IMG/VR virus record: IMGVR_UViG_3300022912_000011
Coordinates: 1 to 54,461 of that record
Length of the DNA: 54,461 nucleotides
Source: a virus
Taxonomy: Duplodnaviria > Caudoviricetes
Strand: one strand, 5' to 3'
Made by a program: the position numbers and the translations under genes. The notes beneath the pieces were generated by a model that saw only the letters and a list, made by a program, of their open reading frames with translations, was not told the origin of the DNA and made no database searches. Shown here piece after piece: positions 7,924 through 51,801 of this stretch; position 1 is the first letter of the stretch; each line of letters starts with the position of its first letter.

Positions 7924-8048
7924 AAAAGGGGAGCGTCCAATAACTGAGTGCAAATAAGAATAACACAAGAATAACCATAAACTTGTGGGTGTTCAGTTAT
8001 ATAGCTAGAAGTGAGCAACTACTAGTAAGTAGAGGACGCTCCCCTTTT
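7924..8048. ncRNA. Candidate structured RNA or multibranched terminator downstream of the Ubl gene
   Basis: 15-bp perfect closing stem AAAAGGGGAGCGTCC/GGACGCTCCCCTTTT; internal stems ATAACTGA/TCAGTTAT, CACAAG/CTTGTG, CTACT/AGTAG. Confidence 0.55.
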
Positions 8049-8079: not shown

Positions 8080-8526
8080 TTAGTTATTGCCTTTTGCATT
8101 GAAGGCGAACAGGATTTCATCCCCTGCCTTGATTATGGTAGAGAGTTTGGAATCCTCGTTGTTCACGCAGACATTCATTCCTTCCATGTCCTTTGCGCGA
8201 ACTTCCGCCAGTTTCGCCACATCCTCCACTGTAAAGGCTCCATCCTTTACACCAGCGAGGGGCAGCATGACCGTGGTTCCGTCCCCCGGCACTTTCGATA
8301 CCTTGATAGCAACCTGTTCAGCATTGCCCTTGGCATCATCGGCTACCGATATAGCATCCCCATCCTCGACAGGGGCATCCAGATCGGTATCGTTACCATT
8401 AAGCTGGACATCCTGACCGTCAACCTCAAGCTGTCCTTTCTTCAGGACATCAGCCACGGAAGCTCCTTCAGCAACAGTAACGTCCAACACATCACCGGGA
8501 ACCATGATCAGGGTAATCTTTGCCAT
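8080..8526 (-). CDS. Tandem di-ubiquitin-like (ThiS/MoaD beta-grasp) protein
   Basis: Two repeats of xxVPGD...(S/T)VxDV...VxxN...L...(D/A)GDxI...AKGN, a typical ThiS/MoaD/Ubl pattern; next to E1 and JAB. Confidence 0.85.
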   Translation of the reverse strand: MAKITLIMVPGDVLDVTVAEGASVADVLKKGQLEVDGQDVQLNGNDTDLDAPVEDGDAISVADDAKGNAEQVAIKVSKVPGDGTTVMLPLAGVKDGAFTVEDVAKLAEVRAKDMEGMNVCVNNEDSKLSTIIKAGDEILFAFNAKGNN

Positions 8527-8596: not shown

Positions 8597-9325
8597 TTAT
8601 GCTCCGTATTTTGAGGTCAGGATAATATGTGGACGGAGCGAAAATTGCAACTTGTTAATTTCAGGCAGTTTGTCGTTAGGCAGTATCTCCTTTCTGGTAG
8701 TGCCGTACAAGAAATTAGCACAATAGATGAATGACCAGATAGCATATCCAGACAAAATATCTGCTGTACTACCTATTGAAAGTGGAGTCCCACATGGACT
8801 TGCGGGAACATCCTCATCCTTTACATCTAACGTTCCATCATACTTCTCTACTATCTTCGGTATAGTCATGGGAATAGAGTACACAATCCCATGTAGAACG
8901 TCCATTCGGGTTTCGATTACCCACTTGGTATCAAACCCTTCTTGAATTATGTTTCTGAATATATCCCTTCTCGAATCAAAAGAGTCAGTCAGAAGGAATA
9001 CTACTCCATCAAAAGTATTGGGGTCGTGTTCAGCAGAATTCACTCTCATGTTGTAAGTGTGAATCCTCTTTTGTTCCAGATCGGCACATATTTTACTCAG
9101 AGCGTCAACCTTATACTCTCCTATATCATTGTTGGTATAAGGCTGATTCCCTATATTATGCCTTTCTACTTTATCAAAATCATACACATGAAGCTGTTGT
9201 GGAGGCAGTCCCATCTTGATAAGACTAATTGCTACCCTCGCACCAGTAGCTCCTGCGCCTACTACATGTACATTGTCTTTAAACTTGGTAGGATTAAAGA
9301 CATCATTACTTCTAGTTATGTCCAA
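8597..9325 (-). CDS. ThiF/MoeB-family E1-like adenylyltransferase
   Basis: VVGAGATG, YDFDKVERHNIGNQ, KVDAL, TDSFDSR, ETRM; candidate catalytic Cys in ASPCG; TTG start with AAGGAG. Confidence 0.92.
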   Translation of the reverse strand: MDITRSNDVFNPTKFKDNVHVVGAGATGARVAISLIKMGLPPQQLHVYDFDKVERHNIGNQPYTNNDIGEYKVDALSKICADLEQKRIHTYNMRVNSAEHDPNTFDGVVFLLTDSFDSRRDIFRNIIQEGFDTKWVIETRMDVLHGIVYSIPMTIPKIVEKYDGTLDVKDEDVPASPCGTPLSIGSTADILSGYAIWSFIYCANFLYGTTRKEILPNDKLPEINKLQFSLRPHIILTSKYGA

Positions 9326-9337
9326 ACGTATTGCTCC

Positions 9338-9718
9338 TTATAATGTTACTGATGCTTCAGAGGATTCCGCCCCGGCCTTCCATTGATCAAGAATTGTCCT
9401 GTAATACTTAGGACTACAGCCGTAATTCATAAACTCATCGGGAGGAATGCAAAGGTACATGGTTAAATATTTGTATAACGGAAGAGAGTCCATGTAACAT
9501 ATAGCAGATTCTTTACTATAGACAGGAGTTATATCACATATCTCTTGCTTACTCTCTGTCATATGTTTCTCTATAATGAAGGCAGGAAGCCCCATAGCGA
9601 AAAGGTCTTTTGGATATTTCAGCAGATTCGCCATGAGTATATCTTTTATGTATTCTCCCTGCTCTTCTTCTGCAAACCTTGTGGCTTCGTCAAGATCGAT
9701 CAACGATTCCGAATTCAA
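9338..9718 (-). CDS. Hypothetical protein within the Ubl operon
   Basis: 126-aa ORF filling the gap between JAB and E1; start uncertain. Confidence 0.55.
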   Translation of the reverse strand: MNSESLIDLDEATRFAEEEQGEYIKDILMANLLKYPKDLFAMGLPAFIIEKHMTESKQEICDITPVYSKESAICYMDSLPLYKYLTMYLCIPPDEFMNYGCSPKYYRTILDQWKAGAESSEASVTL

Positions 9719-10571
9719 ACTGGTCTTGTGTTCCGTACTGGCTTTCCCACCATGCGACGTCTGCTGCCCCGACCCCTGTGTCTGTAGAAAGCCGAACCGA
9801 CCTCCGATCAGAGGAATTTGTATGCGTTTTGAATACCTGAACTTTTTCCAGATACTCCTGAATTAATGGGTCATTGTCCATGACTACGGCTTCGGGAACC
9901 CAATTTAGATTCTTAATTATGATTCCCTTTTTATAATGCCACATGTCAATGATAACTTTACCATTCTTGTTGAATATTCCCCTGAACATATAAGAAGGAG
10001 CAAGTTTCCCTCCTTGTCCAAAGGTCTTCATCTGTGCATTATCCTGCGAAGAGGGTTCAACTCCCATATTTACATGACTATGCCCCCAAAAGCGCAATTC
10101 CCTTATAATCTTGATAGCATTTGCTTTTGGGGTCATATTTTTCAGTAAGTCTGTGACTATGCGATTGATTCCCTTGCCGGAAGCATCAGTCTCTCCACCA
10201 GATACTCTTTGCTCTGGTAGAAATATATCGTACAATCGAAACACATCAGACTTTACTTTCTCGACTGCTCCGAACCAACTTATCTCATGCCCTGCAATTG
10301 AGACAAGAGTCTGTTGTTTAGATAAAGCCTCTTGAGATATAATCATTTTTGGATTAAAGCTCACAGTGAATTCTGGCTTACCCTTATCTGTCCTGAACGG
10401 TAAGGCCAAGTCAGTTGAGACTTCAGACTTATAAAGACTTATTTTCTTTTCCTTGCCATCTTCCGAGATGATCTTAGTCTCTATATATCCAGAGTTATTC
10501 TCTGCTTCTTTCTTCTTGTTCTTGCCTTTCTTTGCATTTTTTTCGCTCTTCGTTAGTTTCTTTCTCACCAT
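9690..10571 (-). CDS. JAB/JAMM (MPN+) metallopeptidase, Ubl-processing/deconjugating
   Basis: N-terminal catalytic E in HEISWFG and JAMM motif WGHSHVNMGVEPSSQD (HxH-x7-S-x2-D). Confidence 0.88.
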   Translation of the reverse strand: MVRKKLTKSEKNAKKGKNKKKEAENNSGYIETKIISEDGKEKKISLYKSEVSTDLALPFRTDKGKPEFTVSFNPKMIISQEALSKQQTLVSIAGHEISWFGAVEKVKSDVFRLYDIFLPEQRVSGGETDASGKGINRIVTDLLKNMTPKANAIKIIRELRFWGHSHVNMGVEPSSQDNAQMKTFGQGGKLAPSYMFRGIFNKNGKVIIDMWHYKKGIIIKNLNWVPEAVVMDNDPLIQEYLEKVQVFKTHTNSSDRRSVRLSTDTGVGAADVAWWESQYGTQDQFEFGIVDRS

Positions 10572-10619: not shown

Positions 10620-12776
10620 TTACGCTCCTACATGAGTCATAAGCATTTCTTCTGATTCTCCAAGCACTTTCTTAGAGTACTTGGTCAAGTATTTAGGTTC
10701 AAGGATTCTGAGTTGCCTCATATAATAGAAGTAGTTACCTTGCAAAACCTCCTTGAGATTAAAGTTGTTATCAGCCAAATACTTAACAAACTCTCCTTCT
10801 GTAGCTCCTTTTTCAAATCCTTTGATGAAAGTTTTATTATTTTCATCAATCCAAGGCCAACTATGGACACCTTTACCCCATGTATCTTTGACATTAGCGG
10901 ATTGTAGGTAAGATATAATCCTACCCACAGCTTCCGCATATCTATTCTCTCCTATAAGCTGAGTCAGTACTGCTCCTACATTACCATAGCAAGGCCCACC
11001 ACTAATAGGCACATGTGGAGCAATATGCCTTCTCTTAGTTCTGCCTAAACAATTAAGTACATCCAATGGCTTATACTTGATGAATGACATGTTCTTATTC
11101 ATTGGCAGTGTTATCTGAATTTTACCTATCAGATGCAATATTCCTGATCGACTGTCTCTGCAAAATAAAGGCTTTGTGCCTATATACAGAGTAGAAGTCT
11201 TTTCATTAGATATCACTTGATCTACTTTTGATAAAGAAAGTAGATTCTCCCATTGTTTTTCTATCGTGTTGGAGGTTTTGATAGCTAAAGTAGTTTCAAT
11301 CTGCTCTTGTTTGTCATGAATTATTTCTATATCTGAAGACGATTTCATAAGTTGAGTTAGAAGATGTTCATGTCTTTCTCTCAAACTCTTTTCCGTTTTG
11401 GTTAACTTATCTTTCTCTGTTCGAAATTGGATTAAACAATTATCTACATACTGTTTCTTTGCTATTTCCATCTTTTGTTTCGGAGTAAGGCGTTTTTCTT
11501 TCTTCTTTTTAGTGAATTCATTCAGAAGCGATGGGTCTGCTTCTATTATAGAATTGATTTCATCAAAAGCCCACTCTAAGTATTTAAAAGCAAGAGCGTT
11601 TTTACTAGTTGGAGTATATGGCTCTCTTTTTATGTTAATAAATATTCCTTTTTTGGGAACAATTCCTCCCAATTCAAAATCAAATTCCTTTACAAAAGGT
11701 ACAGCATCGTCTGTATTGCTTTTCTCTTCTGCCCTGATTGAAATCTTTGCAGAATGATGTTTAAGTCCATCTTGTATGGCATGACTTTGCACGATATGAG
11801 TCAATTGTTTAAAAGTTTCATATTTTTCTACATCGGCTTGCTTAGACAAATCCAAATCCAAGAGAATTTTATCTGGATTTGATTTTGATCTTACAGTTAC
11901 TTTTCCTATTCTTGGCCTATCTATCTCTCTTTCTATATATTGAGCGATATTTCTATACATGCCATGCCCATAAGTAGCTTCAAAAGAAAAGGCAAATATA
12001 GATATACTCTCATTGTTTTTTACAAAGGTATATCCTCCATAACCATGAGAGCAATTTGAATGTAAATCCATTATATCCATGCCACAGAGCATAGCTACAT
12101 GTTGGTTTTTAAGCCATTTCTTTCTGAAAGCTTCACAATGTGCTTCTCTTTTCATATGCATCATATGTGAGGTATGTGAGGAAGCAGATACTACTCTTGG
12201 AGTAGTGGACAGGCAAGAATAAGGAGCAGAGTAGAAGTAGCTATTCTCATACTGAGAGGAAGAATACTCTTGCTTCTTTCTCTTCCTTACTCCTGTCGTC
12301 ATGTATTCAAAATTAAAGGCTTCCTGTGAAAATGGTCTGAACATAGAAGCCTCATTCAGATTCAAGAAGGCAATAAACTCATTTGTACTCAAAAGAAAGA
12401 ATGCATTTTTACCTATTCCATTCAAGTGTGGATATCTTTTGAAATAACTATTTTGCATTTCTGTTGAGATATCACTATATTTTCTGAGAGGAATTCTTCC
12501 CATTTTCATATTTTTAAAAGGGAAAGAAGGGGAAGGGCATATGAGAACAGGGCTAAATCCCTGCTCAAGTGAATTTATAAGAGAAAGTTCAAAACCTTCT
12601 TTTATTTTGGCAGTAGCAGTTAAAGAAGGATATTTCTTTTCGGAAATATCTATACGTTCAGTCTTGTAAACCTTTTGCTTTATCAACGACTCCGCTATAG
12701 CGGCATGTGCTTTATCGGCAGTACTTCTGCGGTCTACAGCAACAGGAGTTTCAGTAACAAGAGTAGCCTTATTCAT
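10620..12776 (-). CDS. Large protein with coiled coil and C-terminal prokaryotic E2 (UBC-like) domain
   Basis: Coiled coil ~aa 425-510, then beta-strands and HIAPHVPISGGPCYGN resembling the E2 HP(N/H)x..G.xC.G site; operonic with JAB/E1/Ubl. Confidence 0.7.
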   Translation of the reverse strand: MNKATLVTETPVAVDRRSTADKAHAAIAESLIKQKVYKTERIDISEKKYPSLTATAKIKEGFELSLINSLEQGFSPVLICPSPSFPFKNMKMGRIPLRKYSDISTEMQNSYFKRYPHLNGIGKNAFFLLSTNEFIAFLNLNEASMFRPFSQEAFNFEYMTTGVRKRKKQEYSSSQYENSYFYSAPYSCLSTTPRVVSASSHTSHMMHMKREAHCEAFRKKWLKNQHVAMLCGMDIMDLHSNCSHGYGGYTFVKNNESISIFAFSFEATYGHGMYRNIAQYIEREIDRPRIGKVTVRSKSNPDKILLDLDLSKQADVEKYETFKQLTHIVQSHAIQDGLKHHSAKISIRAEEKSNTDDAVPFVKEFDFELGGIVPKKGIFINIKREPYTPTSKNALAFKYLEWAFDEINSIIEADPSLLNEFTKKKKEKRLTPKQKMEIAKKQYVDNCLIQFRTEKDKLTKTEKSLRERHEHLLTQLMKSSSDIEIIHDKQEQIETTLAIKTSNTIEKQWENLLSLSKVDQVISNEKTSTLYIGTKPLFCRDSRSGILHLIGKIQITLPMNKNMSFIKYKPLDVLNCLGRTKRRHIAPHVPISGGPCYGNVGAVLTQLIGENRYAEAVGRIISYLQSANVKDTWGKGVHSWPWIDENNKTFIKGFEKGATEGEFVKYLADNNFNLKEVLQGNYFYYMRQLRILEPKYLTKYSKKVLGESEEMLMTHVGA

Positions 12777-40834: not shown

Positions 40835-43000
40835 ATGGCTGTTATAAGAAAATGGAACTATGATTTACAAGACTATGAGTACATAGATGATGAAAATCCC
40901 TCTCCTAAAGAGACAGATGAAGATAAATCTTTTCTTCGAACTGCGGGAGAGATGGGTGGTAAGACCATTAAAGGTATTTCCAAACTTCCTGAACTAGTAG
41001 GCAAGGGGAACGTCACTGCTCCCCTTACTACTGTATTCAAAGCCTATCAAGGCTTGAAGGAAGGTGCAGAAGAAGTTGTGTCTGGCGCAAAGGAAGGCTT
41101 CACAGGCAAGCATGATTACAGTGATGATGGTCGTCCTCTGACAGATTTAGATGGGCATGTTCTGTCTGCTGACGCTGCCGGTAATAGACAGCAGGGTGGG
41201 TCAGTTACTCTTGATATGGTAGATGCAGGAATCAAGGACACCAGTGAGCCTTTCCAAGAAGAGGAAGAGGAAGAGACAGAGCAGGAAGCTGTCTTGGCTG
41301 ATGGTGGGGATGGGATGATGTCTAAGCTTGGGTTCAACAGGCCAAAATCTAATAAGCCTGAGATGGCTGACTCTCCTGTAGTGAACTATGCTGAAGGAGT
41401 CGATGGTGTTGATCTGGATAAGGATGAAGTAGATGGATTTCCTATCCTCACGGCACAGCAGATGAGACAGCAGAACTTAGATCAACTGTCAGGAGAAGAG
41501 GGCTATGATCCTACTATTCCTTCTCTGAGTGAAGACTCTTTGATTACTGAAGCTGACTTTCCTCAGACGGGAGATGCTGAAGGGGCGGCAGAGGATAGAG
41601 AATGGTACACTAGCCTCGGCATGGGAATTGGAAGAGCAGCTTTAGAACTCACAAGGACTTTCTTCCGTCCCATAGTAGACCCAATTGAAGAGGGAATTCT
41701 GGCGTATGGTTTCGGCATTGACGATCCATACAACTCCTTCACTCAGAGGCGTTTAGCGCAGCAGAGGGAAGTGAAGAGGAATCTCAGGGAGAGAGAAGAA
41801 GCTACTATCAAGAACAAACTGGCTTTGGCTAACATTGCAAATGCCATGACCAACACCGACATGCAGGGAATATATGCACAGTCTCACATGATGAAGATGG
41901 GAGCCAATGCTGTACTGCACAAGGCACGTTTGGGAGAAGAGATCACCAAGGAAGATCAAAAGGTATTTGGTACTGTATATGGAACCACACTTCAGAAGTA
42001 TCTCGAACTTGAGACTTTTGATGAGAACGTCAAGAGGATGCAGTTGGGTAAAGAAGCCTTGGCATATGAGGTTCTTGAGTATGAATACCAGAAGAATCGT
42101 ACCTTGAGTGTGATGCTTGGTGGACAGACTATGGAGCAGATGCAGTTTGGTGTGGCTATAATGGACAGGATATCTAAGGCCATTCCCGGTAGCAAGCAGA
42201 TGTCTTACTACATTGGGATGATCAATAGAATATCTCCTGAAGCTGATATGACTATGGAAGAAGGAAACAGGGTAGCTGCTGCGTATCAGACAGCTAATAG
42301 TACTGCTTCCAACGTATTCAATAACACTATTCCTTATGCCAAGGATGCTGCCGCTCAGATAGATAAGAATGTGAATGAGCAGATGAAAGCTTTGGAAGAA
42401 GCTGTCAGGCTTGGAAGCATTGAGATTCCTGAAGGAACTACACAGGATGAATATCTTAACTCTGAAAGAGATAGAATATTTAGAGAAGAACTGAAGAACA
42501 ATAAAGAATACCAGACTATATATTCGTATGCAAATGCAGGAGCAAGAGTGGGAAGTATCCCTGCTACACTAGCTCTGGCTATGTTCAACGATGCTGGTAT
42601 GTCTTCAACAAGTTTTAGACAAGGACTCGATGCCCTTATGATTGGAGGGGGGCCGGGTGCTTCGCCAAGACCTAGAGAACTTACAAAGGAAACCTTCAAC
42701 AAATTCGCATCCAACAAATCTTGGACTCCATTGGTAAAGGATACTATCCCTGCTATTATGAATGGCTTGGGTATAACCGATGCCGCTAAGAGAGAAACGT
42801 TGGGAGCCGATATTGGTTTCATCGGGGCTACTGCTCGTGATCCACGGACAGGCAAGCTGATTATGCAATTACTGATGGAAGCTGAAGCTGAAGGTCAGAA
42901 GGTAGATTTTAAAAAAGAATGGATGCCTATAATGACTGCACAAATTCACGCATGGCTTAAAAAGAATAATATGGCTGTTCCTAGTGAGGGAGGTATATAA
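40835..43000 (+). CDS. Internal virion / DNA ejection protein
   Basis: 721 aa, acidic N-terminus, helical C-terminus; position. Confidence 0.6.
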   Translation: MAVIRKWNYDLQDYEYIDDENPSPKETDEDKSFLRTAGEMGGKTIKGISKLPELVGKGNVTAPLTTVFKAYQGLKEGAEEVVSGAKEGFTGKHDYSDDGRPLTDLDGHVLSADAAGNRQQGGSVTLDMVDAGIKDTSEPFQEEEEEETEQEAVLADGGDGMMSKLGFNRPKSNKPEMADSPVVNYAEGVDGVDLDKDEVDGFPILTAQQMRQQNLDQLSGEEGYDPTIPSLSEDSLITEADFPQTGDAEGAAEDREWYTSLGMGIGRAALELTRTFFRPIVDPIEEGILAYGFGIDDPYNSFTQRRLAQQREVKRNLREREEATIKNKLALANIANAMTNTDMQGIYAQSHMMKMGANAVLHKARLGEEITKEDQKVFGTVYGTTLQKYLELETFDENVKRMQLGKEALAYEVLEYEYQKNRTLSVMLGGQTMEQMQFGVAIMDRISKAIPGSKQMSYYIGMINRISPEADMTMEEGNRVAAAYQTANSTASNVFNNTIPYAKDAAAQIDKNVNEQMKALEEAVRLGSIEIPEGTTQDEYLNSERDRIFREELKNNKEYQTIYSYANAGARVGSIPATLALAMFNDAGMSSTSFRQGLDALMIGGGPGASPRPRELTKETFNKFASNKSWTPLVKDTIPAIMNGLGITDAAKRETLGADIGFIGATARDPRTGKLIMQLLMEAEAEGQKVDFKKEWMPIMTAQIHAWLKKNNMAVPSEGGI

Positions 43001-46000
43001 TGCCTAAGAGCATGATGCCTCTTTCTTCACTGGATGATTACAATAAGAAGCTCCGCAACATGATGATGGAAGGACTCTCGTATGATCAGGCTCAAGCCTC
43101 ACTCCACACGGATTCAGGGCAGCACGAGCCGGGAGATTTTGCGATTGATACTGCCGATCTCATGGCAGGGGATGAAGTACATATTCAGCAGGGAGAGAAC
43201 AAACATAGATTCCCTCTAGTACAGAGGGAAGATGGTGATGGCTTTACCGTGTACAATGAAGGAGAAGAAGTCCCTATCCAGCAGTTCGTTCAGAACAATG
43301 TTTTGGATGGGGGAATCTCTTTTCATCGTTCTAATACTGTACGCAATCTGCACTCGCAGGAACCTCCTGTAACTGACGATGAATTCCAAGGTCACATGGG
43401 ACAGAGTGTAGGTGGGTTTGATCAATCTCTAAATGATCTTGACTTTACCAGCATGACCTCAGAAGATTTAGCTAAGATCAGGAGTGGCATGGACAGAGAG
43501 AAGATGCCGTGGGGTCTGGACTATATGATAAATGGTACTGAAGATCAGGAGTATTCTGACTTTCTAAAAGCCAACGGAGTAGAACTTCCTTTCTCTGAGA
43601 GTGCTGCCGCTATCCAAGAAGATATTGGAAATACTGTGGTGCATGGTGGAGATTGGGCAGGTACGTTTGCCAAAGAAGTAGGGCGCAGAGTATCTAGCCT
43701 TTTCGACGGAGTAAGTGGAGATCAGGCCGTAGCACTACAACAGTTTTGGGAGGAAAAGCCCGGTGAAGAAGATTGGATGGAAAAGAAGCAAGGTCTTGAT
43801 ACTGGTGGAATATGGGGTAGCTTCGCTGCCGGGGCTATGCGTTCCGTTGGAGTGCGTGAGCCTCTTCACGAGTTTGAGCCTGTCACTCCTGTAGAGCAGA
43901 TCACTGGTTTGCTAGGTGAAGTTTTTGGTTGGGGGGCTGGATGGCTAGCTCTCAGGGGTGCAGGTAAAGCAATAGCTAAACCCTTGATAGAGAAGTCTTT
44001 AGCTTCTACTTCCACAAAACTGCTTCCTAGAATCCTTAGAGAATCAGCCGCCAAAGGAGAGAAATACTTTACTGGCAAAGCTCTCACTAGATTGCAACAG
44101 ACTAATGGTAAGGAATTCATTAAGCTGCTGCATAACCCTAATATTGAAGTAGGGCTGGCTAAAGCTTCAAAGGATATCAGGGCTGGTGTGAAGATGCAGC
44201 TTGTAAAGAAAGGAACTCAGAAGCTTGCGAAACAAGAGGGAGCTACTGAACTTCTGGAACATGTAACCACGTTGGGTGCTGGACAGTTGTATGAACAGGT
44301 TATCGAAGTGGTGGATGCATTTACAGGGGGACAGTGGAATCCTGCCCTTGCCGCAGGTATTGGCTTGACCTATATGATTGATATTCCTTTTGATAGGAAG
44401 GGTAGAATCAAGAAGACATTTGATCAGGCTTATGTAGGCAAACAGTCATTGAAGAAGTATAAAGAAGAGTGGATTTCCCTTGCCAGAAAGAACAACGAAC
44501 TTGGCTTGGTAGACCCAATGCTTCTGGATAGATTGGAAAAGATGAAGCCTCAAGCATGGCTTGATCTAGCCCGTCCCCTTGGAGTGCATATTAAAAAGAA
44601 TATGGCTCATGTCCTTAACCTGAATGATCTGGATAACGCTTTGATAGAAGCACAATCTGGCGCACAGATATACAGGGACTTGGGCAAGGGTATAGGCATG
44701 ACAGTTAAAGAGATGGACGAGGGCATGAACTATGATCAGTACTTGCCTGACCCTGTAGTTGACTTCCTTAAGAGGGAAATCCCTGAGTCTCAGATGCCTG
44801 TAAACGGCATGACGGGGTATGACAGGAAGGCTAAGTCCGTTGAATATCTGGTTATGCAGATGAACAGGCTGAAAGATACCAACAAGAAGAACGGATTTGA
44901 GCATGTAAAGAAGGGTGAGGATTTACGACAGGAAATGATTCAGGCCATGAAGAATGGTGAACTGACTCCTAACGGAAACAGGTATGTGAATAACACACTG
45001 AAGCATAACCCTATAGACATGTACTATCAGCCTGATGATGCAGCTTTGGCTTGGAAGGGAATCAAGCAGGGCTTCACTGGAACTATGGTAGAAGGCGATA
45101 ACCCAATGTTCAAGGCTAGGTACACCATCTTATCTCAAGATACTAGACAGGCCGGAACTGCTATCTTAGGAGCGTTTGCTCAGAAGATTGGTAAGAGACA
45201 GGCTGAAGTACAAGAGAGCCAAGGTATTCCTGCTCATACTTCCATACTAGAAGATAAGGTTATATATGATGAAGGACAGGCTGTAAGAGTCCGTACCATA
45301 CAAGATCATATCTCTGGCGAAAGAAAGGTACATGAACAGGCTATAGGCACTGAGAAGGCTCACAGGAAATCTGTCAAGGATAAACTGAAGAAGACCAACA
45401 AGAGTGCAACTAAACATGCAGAGGGGATGGATGAATCTCACAGGATGGATACTGAATCTCTGCCTAGTAATATCCTTAACTCAGGCAAAGAGCATGGAAC
45501 CTTGATGGACAATTACTACAATCTGGTTACTGATCAGTGGGTAAGGATGATGGAAACAATGGAAGCCTTACGTCCTAACAAGAAGGGCAACCTTCTCTCT
45601 AGGGTAATGGGTGTGGTAGACCCTGCTACTGATTCACAGACGCAGCTTAATGACATCATGGCTGGAATCAAGAATGTATTTGGTGAACATGCAGATGGGG
45701 AACTCATTGATGTAGATGGATTTACGAAGCGGGTGATGGAGAAGTTCTTTAATGGCACTCCTGAAGCAGACTTCCTCAATACAATGGAAGCTCTGGAACT
45801 GCAACTGCATGATCTCTTGGCAAAGCACACTGTCCGTAACATGGACGATGTGGCTAGGGGAATGCTCTCAGGTCTTCCTGCACATGAGCTTGCGTACATG
45901 AGTTTCGATGGCAGGTTGGGAGATGTGAGTAACAATGCCAAGTTTATTAATCAGGTCAAGGATGATTGGTCTGTGTATAAAAGATTTATGGAAGAGAAGT

Positions 46001-49000
46001 TACATAACATAGCTCCCGAAGAGCTTCCAAAGCTGGACGAGTTGGATGCTATAATGAAGTCAGAGGAACTTACGATCAATCACATTCTTCATGTCAAGAA
46101 CAAGTTTATGAATCCGACTGAAGATGCGAAGATGATCTCCCTTGACCTTATTCATGCAAAGCGTAAGCATGCCAAGCACGGCAAGCTGGCAGAGCCGGGT
46201 GGAGTCACAGACAGACAGATGATAGAGCAACAGGCCAGAGAAGGATACACCGACTTAATTCCCGGTGTTACCATAAAGGGAACTTCTTCTGACTTGACAA
46301 TGGAACAGCACCTTCAGCAGAGGGTACACGACTTCTATGCCAAGCATGGCCCTGATGCTAATATCGAAGCCCATATAGTAGAAGAAGGACAGGAGCCTGT
46401 GAATGCTCTTCAGAAATTCATTGATGAAGTGCTTATCAGTGGAAGCAATGGAGAGACTTCAGAGAAAGGAAAATTCTGGCCTAAAGCTGCACCGGGTTCT
46501 CCCGGCTATAAGGAATGGTCTGAACTGTTCAAGAAGAAGGCCAAGACAAAAGGATTTGTCAAAGACCATATGAGCGGGCATGATGTTGTGCCTACTGATG
46601 TGGGAGTAAATGGCATGGGGGAAGAGATTACACTGATACAAGTCTTGAAGGCAGGAAAGGATAAGAATGGGGTTGACAAGTTTGATATAATTCAGATATC
46701 ATTAGACCCTAGCACTAGTCCCATGTATCAGATAGATGGAAACATAATCCCGCTAAAGGATAGAATCAAACGCAATTCCAACGGTGAACCTATTGCCGAG
46801 AGGATATACGGAAAGACCGAAGAAAGCATTAATGCTATGAGGCAACAAGCAGAAAATGGTCAAATGGGAATGCGTATGTTGGACGCTGAATCAAACTCTG
46901 GTGGCAGAGGTATAGTCAAGAGAAAAGGCAAAATGACCAAAGAGGAAACTGCTTTAAATCAATCTCTTGAAGATGTACACAATAGGACAAGCAGTACTAG
47001 CTCAAATAAAGCAGAAGTTGACGCAAAAGGTAAGCTAGTCCTTAAGCCACAAGAGAAAACAATAGAGTCTATTCTATATAATGAATTGCCTATGGATGTA
47101 ACTATGGTGATTAACTTGGGCGATCTCAAGAAAGCCGCTACAGCATTGGCAAAGAGTGGGAATAAGAATATAGTAGATTACCTCACTGATACTTTGAGGC
47201 ACGCTCACAAGGAAAAGATGTTTGGAAACAAGTGGGTGCTTGATCGTATGGCATTAGAGAATATAGCTCGTGAGGCCGGAAAGCAGGGTAAGCCGAAGGC
47301 AGTGTTTGAACAGCTACGAGACTTTGGCATTATCACTCAGCTTGTAGATCACGCTGATGGTAGTTCTTACACACGACACATGGGCAAAGGTAAACTTAAA
47401 TCTGTAGGAAAGGGAGCCAAGGAAGGTCAGTCCCTCACTCAGCAGAAGCTCTTTGGTAAGGATAAGAAGAAGGCCGCAGCTAAAGTTGAAGGCAAGAAGA
47501 GAGCTTTGAGTAAAGCAGAGAAGACTGAATATGAGCAACTCACTTCCAAGCATAGCATGCATGGTGAGAAAGCTATGTCTAAGAAAGAGATAGCTAAATT
47601 CAAGAAGTATGAGGAAATCTCTGTAGGTGAGATGGGAGTGAGAAATGATCACACTTACATCTTCAGGCAGGGCAATGCAGAAGCAATTCGTTTAGCTAAT
47701 GAAACTGTGTTGGATGCTACTTCCAATCCTTACCTAGCTTTATATGAGGACGGTTCTATCCCTGATGCTCTGAAAGTCAATGCGTGGTTCAAGCGAATTG
47801 GAGATAAGAATTGGGGTTCCAGAACAGATGATGAACTGATTAAGATTATGACTGAAGCACATAACTTGCCTGATGCAGAGCAGATAGACTTCGATGAGGA
47901 CTTCGTTAAGTTCCTCTTTGAAATGTCTCAGGATATGGATATGGAGATAGTGTTCGCTGAAGGAGCAGACTTCCAGATGCGAGTAAGGAATGAACTTGTT
48001 CGATTGAATGAAGTTCAGAACCTCTCCAAAGCTGAGATACTTCACAGGAAGAGAATGCTTGCCGCCCTGCCGTATATCCGTGCAGTGCAGCATCACAAGG
48101 TAGGTGGAGTTCCTCACGAGGAATGGTACAGGAAAGCTCTAGGACTTATGGCTATCCCTGCTGCCTTCTCGTTTGTAGCTCCTACTGTAGCCCATGCCGC
48201 AGGACAGGTGGGTGCAGGACAAGGTGTGGATATAGTCTATGATGATTCCTACAGTGGATGGGGATGGGGAATGCTGGCTGCTGGTGTAGGCACTTACGCT
48301 GCACTCAGGTATGGCAAAGGCAAGGGACTGTCTCAGTATGTAGGACGTAGTCTAAAGAATAAGGTGAGTGAGATTAAGAAGGCTCATAAGATGGAGAAGA
48401 AGGTTGTAAGCATCAAGGAGCTTTCTGAGACACAGGCACAGGAGTTGACCTACCTCAACGATGCACTTCAGTTCAATGCTGAGATCAAGGCACTGGACGA
48501 TGCGTACTCCAAAGCAAAGCATGTGGATACGCCTGAATTCCAAGAACTGAAGAAGAGGTACACCGAACTGATCGGAGTAGACCCCGACAACGTAAGCATG
48601 AATGAGGTCTATCAGACATTTGGCAACATCTCCAAGATGTATGCGGCTCATAGTGGAAAGCCTCTGAAGGCTAACGCAAAGGACATGGGAGTTTACATAG
48701 AGAATATCTATACTCCGTGGCTGGTAGCGAAGGTTCATCCAGAAGTATTCCCTTATGTTGCGGCTAATATGTCAAGGACTGTGACGGAGAACCGTTGGTT
48801 GGCTGAGATGTTTTCTCAGTTGCCTACTGTCTTTTCAATCACTCATAAGAAACATGGTCTGGACAAAACAACCATGCAACATATTGATAACGCTATATAT
48901 AAATATGTGAATGGAAATGAATGGAACAATGCTACTCAGGAGAAGGTCAGGAAGTTTCTGATGGAGAGAGATATTTCTGCTTCCAATCCGCTAGACAAAG

Positions 49001-51801
49001 CCGGATATGTGCCCGATGAAGCCAACGTTGACTTAGCTATGCAAGCTATAGATGAGATGGTTGGCGTGCTTAACGGTAAGGTGGAAGCCCTGAAACAGAG
49101 TAGGATGAAGCCTGAGTTCAGAGCTAAGTATAGTAAGCGTAAGGGCAATACTGTTTACTTTCCAGAAGATCGTGGTAAGGGAGACTACATCATGTTCCTC
49201 TATGACGATCCTGCTATGACACAAGCTGTAAGGGAAACTGGCGCACCCACAGGAGAGAAAGGATTACTCTACTGGCGCAGGTTTGAGAAGCCTCCTAGTG
49301 CTGAAGAAAAGAAGAAAGCATTTAGGGCTGCCAAAGCTGAGTGGAGAGCAAATGGAACCGAGAAGGGACAGGCGAACTATGCCGCTATGGAGAAGATGCA
49401 TGAGATAGAGGATTTCTCCACTGTTAATGTCAAGTCTAGTAGGGACATTATGAACAATGACACTAATGCAGTGATCTCTAACCTTATACATATATCCGAG
49501 GAAAAGGCTAGGGGAGCCGCAGACGCAGCTAGGAATTTAAAGAGAGCTTCTTCTATTGATGGAATGAATAAGAAATCTGAGGACTTCAAAGCCTCTGCTG
49601 CCCAACTTAAAGAGTGGGCTAACAGTGATATAGGAGTACACACTATCTCTGCGGCAGACGGCAAGAACTATCAGATTGATTGGCGGGAATTGACAGACAT
49701 TCCCGGCTTTGAGCATGTGAATGCTATTGAGAACTTCATCAAGAATGCTAGAGGTAATGCTGCTGCTACTGCCCGTAAAGCGCAGATAGATATGTACAAG
49801 AAAGCAGACGATGTGTTTCTGATGTCTGCTGCTAGGAATAATAATAATACTGCGAACTGGCTGAAGAAGCACAAGAAGTTTGCACTGTATGGCCCTGACA
49901 GTCACAGGACTGCTAAGTGGGTAGGACGTTTGAAGTACTTGTTCTACATGACTCAGCTTTCCCTGAACGTGGCTAGCCCTATCATTAACATGACAGGTAT
50001 AGGCACAATCGTACCACAGGAGCTTACAAAGAGAGCAAGGGCAATGGGAGTCCATGATAGGTTTGTCTCCACGAGATTACTTGGAGCGGCTATCAAAGAC
50101 CTCGGAGCTAATATAAAGACAGTGGCTAGGCTAGGGAAAGATCAACCGCTTCCTAATTGGGAGCATAGTTCTTTCGTAACAGATGAGAAGAATCTACTGC
50201 AACGTCTTGCTGTTGAAGGACATACAGGACAGACACTTGCTACAGAGTTCTCACCTGATATAGCTGAAGTAGCTGTTGGTCAAGGAAGATGGACTGCTAA
50301 CACAGACCAAGGGTTCTTCAAGGATAAGCTTGCTGCCTTAGATTTCTATGGCACATGGTTATTCAGTAAGTCAGAAGAAACCGTGCGTAATGCTTCGTCA
50401 CTGGCGGCATGGAGATTAGAGAAGAAAGCTAATCCTGCTCTGGTGTCTGAGATCAAGACAGGTAAATGGGGGCCACAACAGGAAGGTGCTTATCAGCGTG
50501 TGGTTGGAATGAACACGAATGTAAACATTGATTACAATCCGTGGAACAGGCCGGGTGGAGCCGCTAGTCTTAGTGGTATCTTCAGCCCTATCTTTACTTT
50601 TAGAAGCTTCATGCTCAACTACTTACACACACTGGCTCTCCATTTTGATGAGGCTATCAAGATTGGAGCGGCAGGTAGGAAGTTAGAGCCTTCTACCATG
50701 AGTGCGCCAGCGTACCATGCCAAGAAGGTAGGAGCGGCTGTTGAGTCTCTCGGAAGCAAGGAGTACAGAAAGCAGTTCATGGCTAATATGAAACCTGTGG
50801 CACAGATGCTTATGGGTGTAACCTTGTTTGGTGGTATGCAAGCCTTACCGGGAGCCGACTATATAGAAGAAGCTGTGGCACAAGACCATGTCCCTACTCC
50901 GTGGGGAATGCCAGATATTCCGATACCTGCCCTGAGTGCAATACTGCCGGGAGGTTCTGGAATCAGACCTTCACAAGCGGCTGACATGTGGTTGACTGAT
51001 GCACTTGGAGAGTCTGGACACTGGATATCTGAAGCCTTGACTAAGGGAGTGCCGGGATTGTTGGGAGCAGTAGGGATAGATAACTTCCCTGTAATGACCA
51101 ACGCTCTCAGGATTGAAACTCCTATGTCTGCTACTGACTTACTTGGAATGACAGGCACATATGCTGAACAGATAAGTGATTGGAAGCAGAACGCTTCTAC
51201 CACAATGAGACAGGCTATTAGGAATCCCGGTATGTATCACCCGATGGAAAATCCTAAAGCTTGGGCTGATCTTCTGATTCAGTCTAATCCTGTAGTACCA
51301 AGGGGTGTCAAGAAGGGCTTAGGGTTTGGAGCCAGAGCCGTAGAGAAAGCAATAACAGGCTCTTCTCCTGAACTGACTAAGGGTGGCAGTATTCGTACTG
51401 GCCCTGATGGTAGGCCGATTGACCCCACACTTGGAGAACTGATTACTAGCGCATTTGCTTTTAATCCTTACACTAAGAACAAGAGGATAGAACAGAGGAC
51501 ACTGAGATATGATCTAGAGAAGTGGAAGAAGGGTGTAAGGCAACCGATCATTGATGATTATCAGAAGGCGGCTGCCAAGAGAGACACTAAGAAACTACGC
51601 TACATCAGAAGTAAGATGATTCCAGACTACAACAGAATGATCAATGACATGTCGAAGAAGCGCAAGTTGCGTAGCTTCAATACGTTGCAGATCACTCAGA
51701 GGAATCTGGATGCGGCTCTCAAGAACAATCAGTGGACGAAGGATATATCCGCACTGGCAAGAGAAGTGGACAGGAGAAGGTATAATGACAAGGGTAGATA
51801 A
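43000..51801 (+). CDS. Giant internal virion (ejection) protein, large polyvalent-type
   Basis: 2933 aa; C-terminal N.DY...NRP...F.F..F and G..ALPG motifs seen in large podovirus ejection proteins. Confidence 0.75.
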   Translation: MPKSMMPLSSLDDYNKKLRNMMMEGLSYDQAQASLHTDSGQHEPGDFAIDTADLMAGDEVHIQQGENKHRFPLVQREDGDGFTVYNEGEEVPIQQFVQNNVLDGGISFHRSNTVRNLHSQEPPVTDDEFQGHMGQSVGGFDQSLNDLDFTSMTSEDLAKIRSGMDREKMPWGLDYMINGTEDQEYSDFLKANGVELPFSESAAAIQEDIGNTVVHGGDWAGTFAKEVGRRVSSLFDGVSGDQAVALQQFWEEKPGEEDWMEKKQGLDTGGIWGSFAAGAMRSVGVREPLHEFEPVTPVEQITGLLGEVFGWGAGWLALRGAGKAIAKPLIEKSLASTSTKLLPRILRESAAKGEKYFTGKALTRLQQTNGKEFIKLLHNPNIEVGLAKASKDIRAGVKMQLVKKGTQKLAKQEGATELLEHVTTLGAGQLYEQVIEVVDAFTGGQWNPALAAGIGLTYMIDIPFDRKGRIKKTFDQAYVGKQSLKKYKEEWISLARKNNELGLVDPMLLDRLEKMKPQAWLDLARPLGVHIKKNMAHVLNLNDLDNALIEAQSGAQIYRDLGKGIGMTVKEMDEGMNYDQYLPDPVVDFLKREIPESQMPVNGMTGYDRKAKSVEYLVMQMNRLKDTNKKNGFEHVKKGEDLRQEMIQAMKNGELTPNGNRYVNNTLKHNPIDMYYQPDDAALAWKGIKQGFTGTMVEGDNPMFKARYTILSQDTRQAGTAILGAFAQKIGKRQAEVQESQGIPAHTSILEDKVIYDEGQAVRVRTIQDHISGERKVHEQAIGTEKAHRKSVKDKLKKTNKSATKHAEGMDESHRMDTESLPSNILNSGKEHGTLMDNYYNLVTDQWVRMMETMEALRPNKKGNLLSRVMGVVDPATDSQTQLNDIMAGIKNVFGEHADGELIDVDGFTKRVMEKFFNGTPEADFLNTMEALELQLHDLLAKHTVRNMDDVARGMLSGLPAHELAYMSFDGRLGDVSNNAKFINQVKDDWSVYKRFMEEKLHNIAPEELPKLDELDAIMKSEELTINHILHVKNKFMNPTEDAKMISLDLIHAKRKHAKHGKLAEPGGVTDRQMIEQQAREGYTDLIPGVTIKGTSSDLTMEQHLQQRVHDFYAKHGPDANIEAHIVEEGQEPVNALQKFIDEVLISGSNGETSEKGKFWPKAAPGSPGYKEWSELFKKKAKTKGFVKDHMSGHDVVPTDVGVNGMGEEITLIQVLKAGKDKNGVDKFDIIQISLDPSTSPMYQIDGNIIPLKDRIKRNSNGEPIAERIYGKTEESINAMRQQAENGQMGMRMLDAESNSGGRGIVKRKGKMTKEETALNQSLEDVHNRTSSTSSNKAEVDAKGKLVLKPQEKTIESILYNELPMDVTMVINLGDLKKAATALAKSGNKNIVDYLTDTLRHAHKEKMFGNKWVLDRMALENIAREAGKQGKPKAVFEQLRDFGIITQLVDHADGSSYTRHMGKGKLKSVGKGAKEGQSLTQQKLFGKDKKKAAAKVEGKKRALSKAEKTEYEQLTSKHSMHGEKAMSKKEIAKFKKYEEISVGEMGVRNDHTYIFRQGNAEAIRLANETVLDATSNPYLALYEDGSIPDALKVNAWFKRIGDKNWGSRTDDELIKIMTEAHNLPDAEQIDFDEDFVKFLFEMSQDMDMEIVFAEGADFQMRVRNELVRLNEVQNLSKAEILHRKRMLAALPYIRAVQHHKVGGVPHEEWYRKALGLMAIPAAFSFVAPTVAHAAGQVGAGQGVDIVYDDSYSGWGWGMLAAGVGTYAALRYGKGKGLSQYVGRSLKNKVSEIKKAHKMEKKVVSIKELSETQAQELTYLNDALQFNAEIKALDDAYSKAKHVDTPEFQELKKRYTELIGVDPDNVSMNEVYQTFGNISKMYAAHSGKPLKANAKDMGVYIENIYTPWLVAKVHPEVFPYVAANMSRTVTENRWLAEMFSQLPTVFSITHKKHGLDKTTMQHIDNAIYKYVNGNEWNNATQEKVRKFLMERDISASNPLDKAGYVPDEANVDLAMQAIDEMVGVLNGKVEALKQSRMKPEFRAKYSKRKGNTVYFPEDRGKGDYIMFLYDDPAMTQAVRETGAPTGEKGLLYWRRFEKPPSAEEKKKAFRAAKAEWRANGTEKGQANYAAMEKMHEIEDFSTVNVKSSRDIMNNDTNAVISNLIHISEEKARGAADAARNLKRASSIDGMNKKSEDFKASAAQLKEWANSDIGVHTISAADGKNYQIDWRELTDIPGFEHVNAIENFIKNARGNAAATARKAQIDMYKKADDVFLMSAARNNNNTANWLKKHKKFALYGPDSHRTAKWVGRLKYLFYMTQLSLNVASPIINMTGIGTIVPQELTKRARAMGVHDRFVSTRLLGAAIKDLGANIKTVARLGKDQPLPNWEHSSFVTDEKNLLQRLAVEGHTGQTLATEFSPDIAEVAVGQGRWTANTDQGFFKDKLAALDFYGTWLFSKSEETVRNASSLAAWRLEKKANPALVSEIKTGKWGPQQEGAYQRVVGMNTNVNIDYNPWNRPGGAASLSGIFSPIFTFRSFMLNYLHTLALHFDEAIKIGAAGRKLEPSTMSAPAYHAKKVGAAVESLGSKEYRKQFMANMKPVAQMLMGVTLFGGMQALPGADYIEEAVAQDHVPTPWGMPDIPIPALSAILPGGSGIRPSQAADMWLTDALGESGHWISEALTKGVPGLLGAVGIDNFPVMTNALRIETPMSATDLLGMTGTYAEQISDWKQNASTTMRQAIRNPGMYHPMENPKAWADLLIQSNPVVPRGVKKGLGFGARAVEKAITGSSPELTKGGSIRTGPDGRPIDPTLGELITSAFAFNPYTKNKRIEQRTLRYDLEKWKKGVRQPIIDDYQKAAAKRDTKKLRYIRSKMIPDYNRMINDMSKKRKLRSFNTLQITQRNLDAALKNNQWTKDISALAREVDRRRYNDKGR

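Follow-up and report, generated by a model that had tools for sequence, protein, structure and literature searches.

A putative phage polyubiquitin-like precursor with Gly-Asn tails in an E1/E2-like/JAMM cassette

The - strand ORF at positions 8080..8526 of the window, the whole 54,461-base stretch analyzed here (an uncultivated virus record with an estimated completeness of 58%), is read with moderate confidence as a phage polyubiquitin-like precursor within an E1/E2-like/JAMM cassette, one that would be cut at each junction after an Asn and then conjugated. To judge from its phmmer relatives among 1.84 billion representative proteins, the ORF is a real gene. It has no internal stops and encodes a 148-aa protein (P0001) with the following features.

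8080..8526, - strand: poly-Ubl gene P0001, 148 aa; two beta-grasp units, a one-residue cap and a stop codon
8323..8526, - strand: poly-Ubl unit 1, residues 1-68, with an A-K-G-N end (KGN = residues 66-68, 8331..8323)
8086..8322, - strand: poly-Ubl unit 2, residues 69-147, with an A-K-G-N end (KGN = residues 145-147, 8094..8086)
8085..8083, - strand: cap Asn148 after unit 2, then TAA at 8082..8080

The presence of two Ubl domains that both end in AKGN, as in the original prediction, was borne out by the ORF, by a repeat alignment and by a curated family model. The two halves of P0001 (residues 1-68 and 69-148) aligned end to end with a local BLOSUM62 score of 81, as compared with 27.5 +/- 5.2 for shuffled controls, and 0/2000 shuffles reached 81. 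Identity between the two units is ~30%, and a PGD lies near the start of each half (residues 10 and 80). In the curated-model test for the ubiquitin-like beta-grasp superfamily (ThiS/MoaD/SAMP2), P0001 scored above the Pfam ThiS threshold in two stretches (8.5e-7, 29.9 bits, cut-off 22.5). A single-sequence AlphaFold model of P0001 was too low in confidence for use (pLDDT 33); in the Atlas model (pLDDT 0.65), residues 2-67 aligned to a 68-aa ThiS cluster with a TM of 0.88.

At E<=1e-3 the phmmer search returned 119 matches, of which 17 reached E<=1e-10. P0090 and P0115, which are unrelated surface proteins by Pfam, were removed, leaving a family of 117 proteins. Units were counted with a 69-position profile seeded on 113 units whose ends had been set at [KR]GN; the tail counts therefore lean slightly toward this motif, and the raw listing of the relatives shows the same [KR]GN picture. 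One unit was found in 28 proteins, two in 63, three in 20 and four in 6. All 227 complete units (238 units in total) carried a tail Gly, which in alignment A1 corresponds to G67 and G146; it was preceded by Lys in 191 units and by Arg in 15, and followed by Asn in 201, Gly in 16, Ala in 9 and no residue in 1. As in polyubiquitin, the units stand head to tail, each with a conjugation tail, but that tail is Gly-Asn in 201/227 units and the Gly-Gly of polyubiquitin in only 16/227. Against solved structures, the family profile matched SAMP2 (1.4e-6, 5.8e-6 and 8.9e-6), polyubiquitin (2.3e-5) and ThiS (6.4e-3), and several of the poly-Ubl relatives were matched by Pfam SAMP2.

A tail of Gly followed by Asn, Gly or Ala was present at 142/142 internal junctions (129 GN, 8 GG and 5 GA), including 47/47 between neighboring units less than 60% identical. 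The internal KGN is therefore under selection, and the check in homologues that the original prediction had named as able to refute it came out in its favor. Among multi-unit proteins, 136/185 units most resembled another unit of their own protein, and by this comparison most arrays appear to evolve in concert, like polyubiquitin genes. P0001 is an exception. Its unit 1 best matched unit 1 of P0049 and of P0004, its unit 2 best matched unit 2 of P0004, and P0004 unit 1 in turn paired with P0001 unit 1; this pairing of first with first and second with second suggests that the units of P0001 are an old, position-specific pair.

Such a pair, old and kept together, would suit an ISG15- or BilA-like di-Ubl, in which the domains stay joined, the end is trimmed and the internal AKGN is a duplication relic or a linker. 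The parts of PMC11601603 that were covered describe type I Bil Ubls with two beta-grasp domains and Bub and type II Bil Ubls with up to three, and have the multi-domain Ubls of both systems working whole. However, a relic or linker would have to account for a tail at every junction, even between divergent neighbors, for a copy number that varies from one to four within one cassette type, for the concerted evolution of most arrays and for cargo fusions with a KGN at the joint. The di-Ubl is thus improbable. The conserved internal tails, together with cassettes whose Ubl has a single unit, favor double processing over an obligate ISG15-like di-Ubl, as the original prediction had also judged.

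The cargo fusions consist of two KGN-ended units and a domain of ~100-150 aa of no known family (P0019, P0031, P0033, P0043, P0046, P0054, P0056, P0057, P0080, P0099, P0102 and P0112; loci L019-L022), a layout reminiscent of ubiquitin-fusion proteins. Their cargo domains carry a CxCxxCxC motif, end in a helical region that resembles a coiled coil, and matched only one another; these fusions, too, reside in the X-JAB-E1 cassette. In the three-unit relative P0058, spacers of ~37 aa, each beginning directly after RGN, separate the units, and the C-terminal overhang HKETV is similar to the spacer starts.

In the window, the order of the cassette along the - strand is X, JAMM peptidase, 126-aa ORF, E1 and poly-Ubl. 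The genes other than the poly-Ubl are as follows.

10620..12776, - strand: protein X, 718 aa; variable N-terminal part, helical stretch and conserved C-terminal E2/UBC-like domain
10806..11234, - strand: E2-like domain of X, residues 515-657, with candidate catalytic Cys596 at nt 10991..10989
9690..10571, - strand: JAMM/JAB metallopeptidase, 293 aa (PADLOC JAB 1.6e-3; motif at nt 10082..10041)
9338..9718, - strand: 126-aa ORF between the JAB and E1 genes, with a 29-nt overlap with the JAB gene end
8597..9325, - strand: minimal E1-like adenylating enzyme, 242 aa (Pfam ThiF 1.6e-17; alignment A6)

The cassette is flanked by genes for DnaB-like and SNF2-type helicases, an RNA ligase and a primase, and its position is among early/replication genes, not in the tail module. 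The large + strand ORFs that fill 21-52 kb are putative structural genes; a 2933-aa ORF (window 43000-51801, +) ends this run. Just downstream of the Ubl gene lies a perfect 15-nt inverted repeat (AAAAGGGGAGCGTCC / GGACGCTCCCCTTTT, window 7924-7938 and 8034-8048, arms 95 nt apart), a motif that occurs nowhere else in the window. Rfam models detected nothing at gathering scores over the whole window, and promoter and terminator scans around the cassette gave no more hits than were obtained in shuffles.

Searches with family alignments recovered 19 related loci (10 viral contigs, 5 MAG contigs and 4 further viral contigs), which make up the whole context sample for the family and include several near-duplicates of one another. 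X, JAB, E1 and Ubl were all present in 18/19; the exception, L010, is only 3089 bases long and holds the Ubl and the start of X. A unit-profile scan of 15 loci (L002-L016) found a Ubl with one unit in 9, two in 5 and three in 1. Every unit complete at its C-terminal end finished in KGN; L014 and L016 each have a degenerate second unit without the tail. The 126-aa ORF matched no family in four libraries, nor did any of the first ten related loci contain an equivalent, and it is therefore probably outside the cassette core. In several relatives the gene after E1 carries a MIB_HERC2-like domain (best 4.7e-8; L005:11504-12613, L004:3851-4699 and L008:5513-6448), a domain that occurs in eukaryotic E3 ligases; no equivalent of this gene was found in the window. 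A word-index protein search for close relatives returned the query itself only, and a word search with X residues 500-718 gave no matches. Viral contigs searched with the single Ubl, E1 and JAB proteins yielded no related loci, and in cultured phages there were no matches by blastn of the cassette or tblastn of the Ubl.

An 'HSH' JAB and an E1, both implied in the original prediction, are present beside the Ubl gene. The JAMM peptidase has an intact E...HSHx7SxxD motif, given in alignment A5 by E96 and W162-G-H-S-H-V-x-M-x3-P-S-x-Q-D177, and the JAMM/MPN+ metal site E...HxHx7SxxD was invariant in 8/8 aligned sequences. By blastp it matched cassette-neighbor JABs at 1e-18 to 1e-30; the JAB profile had no match at E<=1 among PDB sequences. 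The JAB gene of L007, like that of L006, is split by a group I intron (L007:6417-6671; Rfam RF00028, 58.9 bits, E 4e-14), which lies within the HxH codons: exon 1 closes with ...LWGH, and the reading frame continues in exon 2 with ...SHISGGVGPSGQD. Group I introns tend toward conserved, essential sites.

The E1, recognized by its Pfam ThiF match, has a GAGATG, and its glycine loop, D114, R119 and S176-x-C178-G are invariant. Its profile matched PaaA (2e-9) and MccB (3.7e-8) in the PDB, and also UBA5, ThiF and Cap2; the PaaA and MccB matches cover the nucleotide-binding part only (positions 12-93) and are no better than that of UBA5. CBASS E1-E2 models were matched over the nucleotide-binding part only, and the PHROGs label for the E1 family is 'unknown function'. 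No matches were obtained by tblastn of the E1 against plasmids. Among cultured phages, 34 records matched the E1 at ~30% identity (Flavobacterium FpV4-like phages and Xanthomonas/Erwinia phages of 227 kb). Flavobacterium phage FpV4 (L017) and Xanthomonas phage PhiXhv-12 (L018) were considered as cassette members and rejected, since in neither did a search at E<=1 reveal a KGN unit less than 6 kb away and the sole JAB signal was a faint Prok-JAB hit (0.0076) in the FpV4 gene that precedes the E1 homologue.

By sequence, the profile of the protein X C-terminal domain reached E2 W at an E of only 0.58. The C-terminal motif of X, P587-H588-x4-G593-x2-C596-x-G598, was invariant in 9/9 sequences (alignments A3 and A4) and places an invariant Cys after a His-containing loop, as in E2/UBC enzymes. 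A model of the domain from nine sequences had a pLDDT of 74 and a pTM of 0.71. In a wide structural search with this model, independent of Foldseek, the top 13 rows were all E2 enzymes, one of them a CBASS E2, at middling scores (Z 5.8-5.3, below 8; rmsd 3.1-3.8 A over 97-114/143 residues), and the Foldseek list was likewise mostly E2 enzymes, but at E >= 0.15. Matches of the E2-like profile to DARPin/ankyrin proteins (E 0.009-1) were set aside as a motif resemblance, L..aNv.D..G, over one helix-loop. The C-terminal domain of X likely has the E2/UBC fold, and Cys596 is a candidate active site. Complex prediction for the E1 (A6) with the E2-like domain (A4) scored 0.00, which speaks neither for nor against binding. 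With a likely E2 fold and a candidate Cys in X, the cassette would hold all four kinds of Ubl-conjugation parts. The original prediction was right in kind, with a polyubiquitin-like precursor beside a JAB and an E1 and a conserved internal tail.

Alternatively, P0001 could act without modifying proteins, either as a ThiS/MoaD-type sulfur carrier with its adenylating enzyme or as an assembly chaperone of the kind known from lambda, whose Ubl tail assembly protein I works with a JAB peptidase. Pfam ThiS and ThiF are the only family names above threshold here, phage records name the distant E1 homologues ThiF or 'thiamine biosynthesis protein', and a phage Ubl and JAB pair without conjugation is discussed in the covered parts of PMC1779556. 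However, no match to a thiazole or molybdopterin synthase was found among the cassette genes and the scanned neighbors, the cassette always comes with an E2-like protein that bears an invariant Cys, tandem arrays and caps would be senseless for a sulfur carrier, and the cassette lies in the replication module rather than the tail module. A role of this non-modifier kind is therefore highly improbable.

Where the precursor is cut was judged from its ends. Among the 85 ORFs whose last unit is at the C-terminus, 33 stop directly after the N/G/A residue and 1 stops at the Gly, 33 carry one extra residue and 18 carry two to seven; in a minority the end is ...KGG (two ORFs) or ...KGA (one). The KGG subfamily comprises P0048, P0063, P0068, P0079, P0092, P0097 and P0107, and the KGA subfamily P0026, P0037 and P0106. 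The family profile puts KGN on the IKGG that ends Haloferax SAMP2, up to the last residue of that chain, and sets ...kiKGn-ad-v.v on ...LRGG-MQ-IFV of polyubiquitin, with the next unit beginning at the Met1 position. Together, the ORF stops, the KGG and KGA variants and the register against SAMP2 and polyubiquitin indicate that the mature end is more likely the Asn, which would be the counterpart of ubiquitin Gly76. The single extra last residue was Lys in 10/33 ORFs, and Lys occurred in 0/116 cases at the matching position of internal junctions; common at the end and absent internally, it looks like a selected cap.

The original prediction had instead placed the scissile bond between Gly and Asn, in which case the JAMM peptidase would expose ...KG for the E1, the Asn would be a P1' residue or cap only, and double processing would be kept. 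Gly is the sole invariant tail residue (227/227 complete units), all ORFs but one carry at least one residue past it, as if all needed trimming, and a strict P1' Asn peptidase would give the same tail counts. In the parts of the cited sources that were covered, known Ubl systems conjugate through Gly; E1s of ubiquitin-type systems normally require a C-terminal Gly and BilA ORFs mostly end at the conjugating Gly, a few with short overhangs (10.1101/2023.09.04.556158), so that an Asn end would be unusual. On the other hand, a peptidase that also cuts Lys isopeptide bonds would presumably not need a strictly conserved P1' residue, and the bond before the Asn leaves aside that 33/85 ORFs end exactly at the N/G/A residue, that G or A can replace N, the two KGG-ended ORFs having the classical mature end, and that in the register N coincides with the final Gly of both SAMP2 and ubiquitin. 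A cut between Gly and Asn is accordingly rather unlikely. We lean clearly, if not decisively, toward the cut after KGN, and the scissile bond probably lies one residue further than originally proposed.

With the cut after KGN, the pathway would run as follows. The JAMM peptidase would cut at each junction and trim cap Asn148, giving two different single-domain Ubls. The E1 would adenylate the C-terminal carboxylate so freed, with Cys178 as a possible holding site for the Ubl. The Ubl would then pass to Cys596 of the E2-like protein X, whose variable N-terminal part would pick the target, and would finally be joined to target lysines. E1-like MccB adenylates a C-terminal Asn, and so an E1 fold can activate Asn; by analogy with MccB, the route of an Asn-attached phage modifier may include a cyclic imide. 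A Pup-like deamidation of this last Asn was rejected, since the variants at this position are Gly and Ala, never Asp. The location of the cassette in the replication region and the rapid change in the N-terminal part of X suggest that it may tag host or competing-phage proteins; its site of action is probably the infected cell, with proteins of the host or of rival phages as targets. The full proposal, a phage Ubl system whose modifier is activated and attached through its C-terminal Asn and which tags such proteins, is put forward tentatively.

The closest kin of the cassette is polyubiquitin in design, archaeal SAMP2 in sequence and BilABCD in parts list. Like polyubiquitin of the UBB/UBC/UBI4 type, the family has head-to-tail units with no real linker, a shared basic-Gly-x tail, arrays that mostly evolve in concert and, often, a short extra residue that caps the last unit; yeast UBI4 ends in an extra Asn. 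Unlike polyubiquitin, the family has a KGN rather than an RGG tail, SAMP2/ThiS-like units and a phage-borne gene, the adjacent predicted processing enzyme is a JAMM peptidase, and the units of the window are only ~30% identical. Archaeal SAMP2 is the best solved relative by profile, of equal length and with ...IKGG where the family has ...IKGN. However, SAMP2, which is not known to use an E2 for conjugation, is a single unit with a Gly-Gly end, whereas the family has arrays, an Asn end and an E2-like protein.

In Bil systems, as far as the covered parts of the sources describe them, the peptidase pre-processes the Ubl and two-domain Ubls occur (10.1101/2023.09.26.559546, 10.1101/2023.09.04.556158 and PMC11601603). 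As in BilABCD, the Ubl, E2, JAB and E1 of the cassette are separate genes in one operon, the E2 here being a predicted one. By contrast, Bil is a bacterial anti-phage system and the cassette is carried by phages; BilA, in the parts of the sources covered, ends in an invariant Gly, whereas the last conserved residue here is Asn; and the cassette has its E2-like domain at the end of a protein of 370-720 aa and an E1 that is a bare adenylation domain of 220-240 aa. PADLOC hits of the cassette named no Bil model. In Bub/6E systems, a Ubl consists of one to three beta-grasp repeats, and the active Ubl is released from a fusion by a peptidase, according to parts of PMC1779556 and PMC11601596; parts of the latter also describe JAB-E1 or E2-E1 fusions, a DUF6527 serine protease and oxyesters for Bub. 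The cassette differs in that its genes are separate and that the E1 and the E2-like domain each have an invariant Cys. DUF6527, by which Bub/6E is recognized, was not found by Pfam, and the E1 profile matched BubCD at only 6.6e-5.

MccB (microcin C) and PaaA resemble the cassette E1 as E1-like adenylating enzymes among the best PDB matches of its profile, but they act on short peptides and yield a nucleotide antibiotic instead of a protein conjugate. The link to PRTRC systems that had been drawn for the Ubl was not supported: among the NCBIfam PRTRC models (A, B, C and ThiF), only the E1 gave a match, to PRTRC_ThiF, scoring 36.7 bits where the cut-off is 144.75, and the Ubl, JAB and X gave none. 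Phage Ubl and JAB tail-assembly pairs and five types of bacterial operon are described in the covered parts of Iyer et al. 2006 (PMC1779556), from which this cassette type is absent. In the full texts of the literature searched, neither a phage E1/E2/JAB/poly-Ubl cassette nor a Gly-Asn tail was described.

To our knowledge, prokaryotic Ubl conjugation has so far been described as bacterial anti-phage defense (Bil, type II CBASS and probably Bub). A conserved and seemingly complete E1/E2-like/JAMM/poly-Ubl cassette carried by phages would give viruses the same chemistry. The polyubiquitin design, with arrays of near-identical units, a cap residue and cargo fusions, would thereby have an example in a prokaryotic virus as well, and the Gly-Asn tail bears on the assumption that a C-terminal Gly is obligatory in Ubls. 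The family is recognizable by its [KR]-G-N ends, and its E1 homologues are now annotated as thiamine biosynthesis proteins.
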